From a virus (Duplodnaviria > Heunggongvirae > Uroviricota > Caudoviricetes): DNA of 64,000 nt. Each line of letters starts with the position of its first letter. The stretch's first letter is position 1. Positions 42,552-43,580 of the stretch are shown piece by piece. The translations under genes were made by a program, and so were the position numbers. The stretch lies in IMG/VR virus record IMGVR_UViG_2721755712_000001; one strand, written 5' to 3'. The notes beneath the pieces are model-generated. The model had not been told where the DNA came from and ran no database searches. It saw nothing but the letters and a program-made list of their open reading frames with translations.

Positions 42552-42962
42552 TTAAGGGTTAGTGAGAGCTTGAAATGCGGCCGCGTAGGCAGCGATATCG
42601 ACCATAATTTTTGGATCTTTCGCGTACTGATGTGCGTTGTTAGGGAAGATTGCCAATAGGCTATACACATCTTGGAAATGTGCATGTTGACTGTAAACGA
42701 GTGCACGGTCGCTTGTGCAATTGAATCTGCTGCGGCTGCTGGTTCGTTCTTGCTTCGTGAACAAGAGATGAACGTGATAGACGCGGGAGGACACGATAGC
42801 ACCAGGAGCCGTATACGGGCCATCTTTGCCGAATATGGCTGGGTACATGCCTTGTTTAAACGACTTGAAATCGTTGAGTAACGTAATCTCTAAGTCAGGC
42901 TTTATATCGAAGGTCGGCTTTAAAAATTGGGCGTAACTATCACTGTTCCATGTGATCTTCAT
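42552..42962 (-). CDS. YafO-family toxin
   Basis: Alignable to E. coli YafO as recalled: FGKDGPY, VYHVHL, RFNCTSDRALVYSQ, LLAIF...AKD. Confidence 0.55.
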   Translation of the reverse strand: MKITWNSDSYAQFLKPTFDIKPDLEITLLNDFKSFKQGMYPAIFGKDGPYTAPGAIVSSRVYHVHLLFTKQERTSSRSRFNCTSDRALVYSQHAHFQDVYSLLAIFPNNAHQYAKDPKIMVDIAAYAAAFQALTNP

Positions 42963-42971
42963 CGTTCAACC

Positions 42972-43580
42972 TCAATGGAATGAGAAGTTGGCGAAGACGT
43001 CCTCATCAATGAGGCCAGTCTGCGATTCGATGACGTCTACGTCGTTAAAACACTGATTTAAAATCAATAGCAGATCAGAGATAGCTAAACGATACTCAGT
43101 TACAGAATCGCTCAAGCGTTTCAAATATGGATGAGGTTGCTCAGAGTCGCGAATCAACTTGTTAACGAATCCCTCCAAACCACGAATGGTCAGGTCAACG
43201 TTCTTCAGTTCTTCGTAACGACTTTCACCGAAGTTGCTGCGAATCTTTTCCGCTTTCCATCCAGAGATGGCATGGGCTAAGCGAACGTGTTTCGCCGTCA
43301 ATTCTGCGAGCTTGCTTTCAATCTTTGCCAGCTGTGCCGCATCGCGGTTTTCTTGAACAGGAATAGCCGCAGTGCTCACATAGGTTTGTGTTTTGAATCC
43401 TGTGAATTTCGCAGAGGGCTTCATCGTGCCACGGAAGCGTCGATATCCACGCGGTTCAATAAAATCACGCCCAGATTTAGCTGTAGGCTTTGCGTTTGAA
43501 AAGCGTGAAGCGTTAGAGGTCACAGTAGCAAGGGCATTGCTAATGACACTCATATCTTCTAGGCAATTTTCTAAACGCAT
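42972..43580 (-). CDS. hypothetical protein immediately upstream of YafO-like toxin
   Basis: 202-aa ORF ending 10 nt before toxin start; unlike YafN in size. Confidence 0.4.
   Translation of the reverse strand: MRLENCLEDMSVISNALATVTSNASRFSNAKPTAKSGRDFIEPRGYRRFRGTMKPSAKFTGFKTQTYVSTAAIPVQENRDAAQLAKIESKLAELTAKHVRLAHAISGWKAEKIRSNFGESRYEELKNVDLTIRGLEGFVNKLIRDSEQPHPYLKRLSDSVTEYRLAISDLLLILNQCFNDVDVIESQTGLIDEDVFANFSFH

Follow-up and report, generated by a model that had tools for sequence, protein, structure and literature searches.

A two-gene cassette carried by a phage-plasmid

The DNA analysed here, a 64,000-nucleotide viral sequence (IMG/VR record IMGVR_UViG_2721755712_000001; hereafter the window), is an SSU5-like phage-plasmid that carries, between a tyrosine recombinase gene and a glutaredoxin (grx) gene, a cassette of two small genes. 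The downstream gene, here called B, encodes a YafO-family protein, while the gene immediately upstream, A, encodes a 202-amino-acid (aa) partner. The cassette and its putative expression signals comprise the following features:

42972..43580 (stop included), minus strand: gene A, 202 aa, ATG start; taken from the open reading frame (ORF) list, a member of phrog_13546
42552..42962 (stop included), minus strand: gene B, 136 aa, ATG start; YafO family PF13957, RelE/BECR fold
42963..42974, minus strand: A stop codon and 9-nt spacer
43614..43642, minus strand: promoter-like block TTGTAG-N17-TACACT, upstream of A
43652..43667, minus strand: terminator-like hairpin directly after the glutaredoxin gene, separating that gene from the cassette

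The two genes are co-oriented, lie in the same reading frame and are separated by the A stop codon plus 9 nt; the original prediction, made from the letters of the window, was correct in placing a 202-aa gene upstream of the YafO-like one but gave the spacing as 10 nt. A Shine-Dalgarno-like T(G/A)AGG motif overlaps the A stop, 7 nt ahead of the B ATG, and is present in every intact homologous pair compared. The 12-nt A-B distance is likewise the same in all intact loci, down to A homologues that are only 39% identical, with the exception of Erwinia (L005), where it is 21 nt. The overlap between the stop codon and the Shine-Dalgarno motif thus suggests that translation of A and B is coupled. 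Gene A has its own good ribosome-binding site, AAGAGG, in front of its first ATG. The promoter-like block reads TTGTCG-N17-TACACT in relatives, and is kept in phage-plasmids, on the Erwinia chromosome (L005) and in an E. roggenkampii locus (L012). It scores under the threshold of a consensus scan, and the TTGT(A/C)G-N17-TACACT block is a putative promoter. Both genes are under purifying selection, with ratios of nonsynonymous to synonymous substitution rates (dN/dS) of 0.13-0.18 for A and 0.08-0.16 for B, indicating that they are real genes and not chance ORFs.

By family membership, conserved residues and modelled fold B is a YafO-family toxin, which bears out the resemblance to E. coli YafO that had been proposed. 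The match to Pfam PF13957 (YafO_toxin) has E = 5e-22 and extends over profile positions 2-100 of 101; its score is 78.2 bits, the gathering cut-off being 25. BLASTP aligns 110 residues of B with E. coli K-12 YafO (b0233), 36% of them identical (E = 7e-14). When B is aligned with K-12 YafO and with plasmid homologues of 28-34% identity, the invariant pattern of the family is G-K/R-D, H-x-H, T-S-D/N and L-x-Y; B retains the family-invariant G45, H63, H65, T83, L88 and Y90 together with the nearly invariant D47 and S84. The modelled fold is of the RelE/BECR type, and is closest to HigB1, HigB2, RelE, YafQ and YoeB; no PDB chain matches B by sequence, even at E <= 10. The isoelectric point (pI) of B is 9.0, and the RefSeq name for the identical protein is ‘type II toxin-antitoxin system YafO family toxin'. 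Against PADLOC-DB 2.0 the only match is one of 13 bits to PDC-M55B (E = 0.015), which does not make B a member of a defence model. By analogy with its family, B would be an endoribonuclease that arrests translation through mRNA cleavage. It should be emphasized that a tblastn search of the window with K-12 YafO at default settings missed B, probably as a result of seeding limits, and that the BLASTP and Pfam results are those to be trusted. A second YafO-like gene at the end of the window (63829-63966) was rejected as spurious; the sequence is low-complexity and tail-fibre-like.

The view that the upstream partner is not of the YafN type also stands, as A gives no BLASTP alignment to K-12 YafN even at E <= 100, and has no Pfam, NCBIfam or PADLOC match. 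Profile searches thus place B in PF13957 and A only in phrog_13546 (E = 9e-125, covering residues 1-202), a family listed as being of ‘unknown function'; in RefSeq A is annotated as a ‘hypothetical protein'. Searches show the A family to be very narrow: among 5.8 billion proteins, a word-indexed search returned 27 matches, all at least 58% identical, and an exhaustive profile search of 1.84 billion representatives returned 11 clusters. The protein can be divided into four regions:

43491..43580, minus strand: A residues 1-30, conserved N-terminal helix (MRLENCLEDMSVISNALATVTS...) with a low nonsynonymous substitution rate (dN); alignments A1 and A2
43347..43490, minus strand: A residues 31-78, variable basic linker, pI 10.7, predicted disordered
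43041..43346, minus strand: A residues 79-180, predicted three-helix bundle with an RGLEG motif, predicted local distance difference test score (pLDDT) 73-85
42975..43040, minus strand: A residues 181-202, conserved acidic tail, pI 4.05, ending FANFSFH

In the AlphaFold2 model the N-terminal helix spans residues 6-25, and pLDDT is below 50 across residues 23-77. The linker is indel-rich in alignment A1, and its dN exceeds that of the regions on either side by a factor of 5-7. The tail also has pLDDT below 50 (residues 181-202) and is predicted to be disordered in isolation; S186, T188, F196 and F199 are invariant even among relatives that are 30-40% identical, and the family ends in F-x-N-F-S-F-H. 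This acidic segment is a candidate toxin-binding element. When the A model was used as the query of a fold search, the matches, which numbered in the thousands, were to generic helical bundles and were uninformative. As far as sequence and profile comparisons can tell, A belongs to an undescribed helical family that is unrelated to YafN/Phd.

Linkage of A to YafO toxins across genomes

Among IMG/VR viral loci retrieved through the toxin alone, A lay immediately upstream in every one (26/26). Conversely, every A homologue found in genomes has a YafO-family gene downstream, including those in Samsonia, Pectobacterium, Brenneria and E. roggenkampii, in which A identity has fallen to 39-43%. Of the PLSDB plasmids, 316 carry A and about 313 carry a gene of the B clade, the two being distributed over the identity bands in near-identical fashion (12/32/1/270 records for A versus 12/32/1/267 for the B clade). 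Within these pairs A diverges faster than B (67% versus 77% identity in one comparison, 41% versus 58% in another). No natural A-B fusion was found among the homologues, the longer or odd-sized matches being frameshifted or extended gene calls.

The pair is found in very different surroundings. In Erwinia sp. JUb26 its only neighbours are metabolic genes, an M20 peptidase / aminotransferase / AsnC block on one side and an SDR gene on the other. A diverged copy in E. roggenkampii (L012-L014, positions 2250-3417), with 41% (A) and 58% (B) identity, lies among insertion sequence (IS) fragments and adjoins a LysR regulator and a phenolic acid decarboxylase gene. This copy also retains the 3' end of grx and the terminator hairpin, which points to capture from a phage-plasmid. 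The promoter-like block and the stop/Shine-Dalgarno overlap travel with the pair across contexts. Judged from these comparisons, the pair is transferred as a unit across unrelated contexts, which comprise phage-plasmids, IS-flanked loci, the Erwinia chromosome and Pectobacteriaceae.

No YafN-like sequence was found anywhere in the window. It could be argued that B is instead controlled by an RNA antitoxin (type I or type III); searches directed at such an element, however, yielded neither an Rfam match nor a tandem repeat array, which argues against this possibility. Adjacency and co-occurrence, in viral and chromosomal loci alike, suggest that A is the cognate antitoxin of B. The proposal that A might be a non-canonical antitoxin has thus gained support from comparative evidence.

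The size of A is unusual only relative to E. coli YafN, and in this respect the original prediction, in which the partner was described as unusually large, does not hold; a large partner is the norm for mobile YafO toxins. Indeed, plasmid YafO toxins that are only 28-32% identical to B are also preceded by an unannotated protein of 175-178 aa, and across other plasmid- and phage-borne YafO toxins partner sizes range from 175 to 190 aa. The 178/190-aa type corresponds to phrog_8416, and precedes PF13957 genes at two of the places looked up, a prophage moron position and an SSU5-like phage-plasmid; at a third (P0092, L056) there is no called downstream gene, and in L057 there is only a 46-aa fragment at the contig end. 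Plasmid counts were 258 for the 175-aa type and 43 for the 178-aa type. Helical partners of 175-205 aa occur in all on more than 600 PLSDB plasmids, including the ~110-kb Klebsiella phage-plasmids that are common in clinical isolates, and such proteins appear to be regular partners of mobile YafO toxins. The related partner-YafO pairs have no PADLOC match.

The partner families are alike in size and in having an N-terminal helix followed by a variable linker and a helical core, with an aromatic-His pair (FH or WH) at the C-terminus; RGLEG is found in two of the three families. In profile-profile comparisons with hhalign the A family matched the 178-aa protein alone with a probability of 61% (E = 8e-5), and alignment A2 of the A family matched alignment A7 of the 178/190-aa family with a probability of 34% (E = 4e-4, 101 columns). 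The latter family in turn matched the 175-aa family (alignment A6) at 48% (E = 2e-4, 127 columns), and the direct comparison of A2 with A6 gave no match. The matches are borderline yet in register.

An early census linked YafO toxins with Phd and with unclassified ‘guilt-by-association' partners (PMC3141249), and in a survey of E. coli the YafO_toxin family had 13 partner clusters, only 8% of them known antitoxins (PMC10790755). In a plasmid study a YafO-family gene was treated as part of an ‘incomplete' toxin-antitoxin system (PMC8151138), a designation that arises because the partner was not recognised. The shell genome of the SSU5 supergroup has been said, without detail, to carry toxin-antitoxin systems (PMC7969092). 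Our literature search found no paper linking YafO with SSU5, and no characterisation of the A partner family. YafO is, to our knowledge, among the least understood toxins of the RelE superfamily. Recognising the partners would mend a systematic annotation gap, would add an antitoxin family that has no recognisable DNA-binding domain and would give a handle on the maintenance of, or competition between, SSU5-like phage-plasmids. The advance is incremental within a well-known paradigm, and does not amount to a new kind of system.

A putative toxin-antitoxin module and the alternatives

The locus consists of small, adjacent, co-oriented and tightly spaced genes, one of them a recognised toxin, which is the makeup of a type II module. 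A has several antitoxin-like traits, namely its upstream position, its faster evolution than B, its predicted disordered segments and a conserved acidic tail that contrasts with the basic toxin. We consider it probable that A-B is a type II-like toxin-antitoxin cassette, in which a known toxin family is combined with an undescribed antitoxin family. In the mechanism we propose, the pair would be transcribed from its own weak promoter, with translation of B coupled to that of A through the overlap of the A stop and the B ribosome-binding site. Neutralisation would fall to the acidic C-terminal tail of A, which would fold upon the basic cleft where the toxin binds RNA; oligomerisation or further contacts would come from the three-helix bundle, and susceptibility to proteases from the disordered basic linker. 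If the phage-plasmid were lost, or if host gene expression were shut off, the toxin would be freed, leading to post-segregational killing of the kind that Phd-Doc provides for P1, and possibly to abortive-infection defence. That B is toxic, that A neutralises it, what the tail does and what the pair does for its carrier are all inferred, the mode of neutralisation by analogy with RelBE, HigBA and YefM-YoeB.

Comparison with characterized systems indicates which elements of this scheme are familiar. Similar to the E. coli K-12 YafN-YafO pair of the dinB-yafN-yafO-yafP operon, the cassette has a PF13957 toxin (36% identical, 136 versus 132 aa) and an antitoxin-then-toxin order with a very short spacer. 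In contrast with that pair, the partner is a helical protein of 202 aa and not a 97-aa YafN of the Phd/YefM type, the toxin falls under the NCBIfam equivalog cut-off and the genes reside on a phage-plasmid and not in the SOS-regulated dinB operon. The RelE/ParE-superfamily systems RelBE, HigBA, YefM-YoeB and DinJ-YafQ contain the toxins to which the modelled fold of B is closest. In these systems an extended or disordered antitoxin C-terminus wraps around the toxin, and the role proposed here for the A tail is modelled on this; their antitoxins, however, are proteins of 70-130 aa with RHH, HTH or Phd DNA-binding domains, none of which was detected in A. The cassette also resembles the other mobile YafO modules, both the phrog_8416 type and the 175-aa type of pGS04EC-1 and pRJA166c, in which a helical partner directly precedes the toxin in the same layout, in some instances in the identical grx-integrase slot of SSU5-like phage-plasmids. 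Homology of their partners to A, however, is barely detectable or not detectable at all, and their toxins are 28-32% identical to B. Phd-Doc of P1 offers a functional analogy: two genes make up an addiction module on a prophage-plasmid of low copy number (PMC7969092), a role that the present cassette may share. Doc is a Fic-fold kinase, however, and the toxin and antitoxin families are both unrelated to those described here.

Several observations weigh against a toxin-antitoxin interpretation. The AlphaFold2 model of A is only moderate (pLDDT 60). The suggestion that A might be a multi-domain regulator finds no support, as Pfam and the fold search revealed no RHH, HTH, Phd or AbrB domain, nor any known antitoxin fold, and the 95-nt region upstream of A contains no operator-like inverted repeat; with neither a recognisable DNA-binding domain nor an upstream repeat, classical autoregulation is unsupported. 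The homology joining the three partner families is, at probabilities of 34-61%, only borderline. With respect to the toxin, B scores 58.5 bits against NCBIfam NF007377, the E. coli YafO equivalog, for which the cut-off is 153. B is thus a member of the family and not an orthologue of K-12 YafO, and its activity and specificity may differ from those of the E. coli enzyme. Finally, in K. pneumoniae RDAV01000003.1 (L062, 1370-2451) a 2-bp deletion in the linker of A is accompanied by an intact toxin gene. Should this deletion be genuine, the toxin can be borne in the absence of full-length A or at a low level of expression; the same sequence has a 1-bp deletion in the putative -35 box. The shortened, 176-aa A product of this K. 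pneumoniae lineage represents a cluster of 35 sequences, and RDAV01000003.1 may be a naturally occurring variant that reveals the part of A that is required. Of the other disrupted copies, that in CP059990.1, in which A is broken by five clustered indels, probably reflects long-read assembly errors, and p_AC125 contains a fully degraded copy.

It could be argued from these observations that A is not an antitoxin but an unrelated co-transcribed regulator, adaptor or phage accessory factor, and that B is non-toxic in this clade or otherwise controlled. The lack of a known antitoxin fold or DNA-binding domain in A, the lineage in which a frameshifted A coexists with an intact toxin and the sub-equivalog score of B would all fit such an explanation. 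Adjacency and spacing, however, are invariant over phage-plasmids, other plasmids and chromosomes, there is no other conserved neighbour, RNA family or repeat that could serve as the antitoxin, and B keeps all the family-invariant residues under strong purifying selection. Furthermore, YafO toxins have partners from three different families in the same relative position. We thus regard this explanation as improbable. That the two ORFs are chance frames or a mis-called single gene, the true partner being, for example, a protein of ~150 aa that starts at an internal Met, is barely credible. An N-terminally shortened 176-aa form is indeed called in some assemblies, but this form stems from the 2-bp deletion. 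Furthermore, amino-acid conservation in A is highest over the first 30 codons, with low dN, phrog_13546 spans residues 1-202 and the first ATG follows the good AAGAGG site.

A different question is whether the same pair has been selected for anti-phage defence or inter-element competition, through abortive infection, in place of addiction. A would then be a labile antitoxin or a sensor, whose loss or sequestration during infection frees the RNase. Such a role is consistent with the location of the cassette in a variable accessory slot, with the presence nearby, in relatives, of counter-defence-type genes (Tad2-like and Acb2/Tad1-like) or AbiH and with the finding that related partner-YafO pairs occupy prophage moron positions between head and tail genes. 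The Brenneria copy, in addition, adjoins a KAP/STAND-like NTPase, and the cassette is a shell and not a core component, occurring on 316 plasmids compared with 932 that have the neighbouring recombinase. In contrast, no PADLOC model matches A, B or the related pairs, and stand-alone chromosomal copies amid metabolic genes fit generic selfish toxin-antitoxin behaviour. Low-copy phage-plasmids, moreover, are classically maintained by toxin-antitoxin modules such as P1 phd-doc (PMC7969092). Defence as the selected role is therefore unlikely, if by no means far-fetched, and it is compatible with addiction. Within the toxin-antitoxin reading, which we continue to prefer, the pair could serve addiction or defence, or indeed both, as neither role excludes the other.

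The cargo slot and its neighbourhood

The 4.2 kb surrounding the cassette is 99% identical to Escherichia phage CMS-2020a, and stretches of the same 4.2 kb also match phage Cyrano and ~110-kb Klebsiella phage-plasmids. Of 5426 complete E. coli genomes, 19 contain the exact cassette, in all cases on plasmids of 107-120 kb and never on the chromosome. Within the window it forms the content of a variable slot, which has the following landmarks:

42510..43703, no strand: variable cargo slot between the tyrosine recombinase and glutaredoxin genes, defined by breakpoints against Cyrano, L047, L052, L058 and by the annotations of relatives
41275..42378: tyrosine recombinase gene, slot flank
43676..43921: glutaredoxin (grx) gene, slot flank
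42477..42509, no strand: palindrome of 33 bp with 13-nt arms and a 7-nt spacer, at the integrase-side edge of the slot
36446-36458, 42477-42489, 42497-42509, 46032-46044 and 47044-47056: copies of the 13-mer AATGATTCCATAC

Homology to Cyrano ends exactly at 42509, the end of the palindrome, and restarts at 43704 inside the glutaredoxin gene. Slot cargo was compared across L018 (pRJA166c), L019 (pGS04EC-1), L047, L052, L058 and L001 (Cyrano). Cyrano carries an unrelated 184-aa gene at this position, and other SSU5-like phage-plasmids carry a 175-aa/138-aa or a 175-aa/152-aa YafO pair. The 184-aa protein of Cyrano and others among the neighbouring and alternative cargo have no Pfam or PADLOC match. 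The palindrome is kept in every SSU5-like locus examined, irrespective of the cargo, and may be a recombinase target or a boundary for cassette exchange. A bolder proposal is that A and the 175-190-aa partners constitute a single antitoxin superfamily for YafO-type RNases, which has no DNA-binding domain, neutralises the toxin by means of a C-terminal aromatic-His ‘plug' and whose alleles are swapped at the lox-like palindrome beside the recombinase. We advance this only tentatively, as a possibility with less than an even chance of being correct.

The palindrome, AATGATTCCATAC-ATAGTAG-GTATGGAATCATT, has a lox-like 13-7-13 geometry and is situated between the toxin gene and the tyrosine recombinase gene. 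The 13-mer that forms its arms occurs five times in the window, compared with 0.13 expected. The copy at 47044 constitutes the start (ATG ATT CCA TAC, encoding MIPY) of a 50-aa ORF at 46903..47055, and the copy at 46032 encodes MIPY within the ORF at 45954..46106. These repeats may be the repeated 5' ends of small genes, or a regulator binding site.

In one relative (L058) Tad2-like and Acb2/Tad1-like genes lie just upstream of the slot. Further away in the window, 36892-40331 encodes a 411-aa AAA ATPase and a CobT-like protein of 702 aa, whose sequence includes a long, acidic low-complexity insert rich in Ser, Asp and Glu. In relatives this pair is annotated as acting in cobalamin or porphyrin biosynthesis, a role that is unlikely in a phage-plasmid. 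A 302-aa ORF at 44095-45003 (plus strand) adjoins the slot on the strand opposite to the cassette; it has no Pfam or PADLOC match, and its place is taken by a similar-sized hypothetical gene in Klebsiella pJN2-26 and by an annotated 909-bp gene in pRM9131-1. A tRNA cluster at 45184-45837 (minus strand) comprises Ser-TGA, Thr-TGT, Tyr-GTA and Asn-GTT, and the equivalent cluster of Cyrano has three tRNAs, without Tyr.

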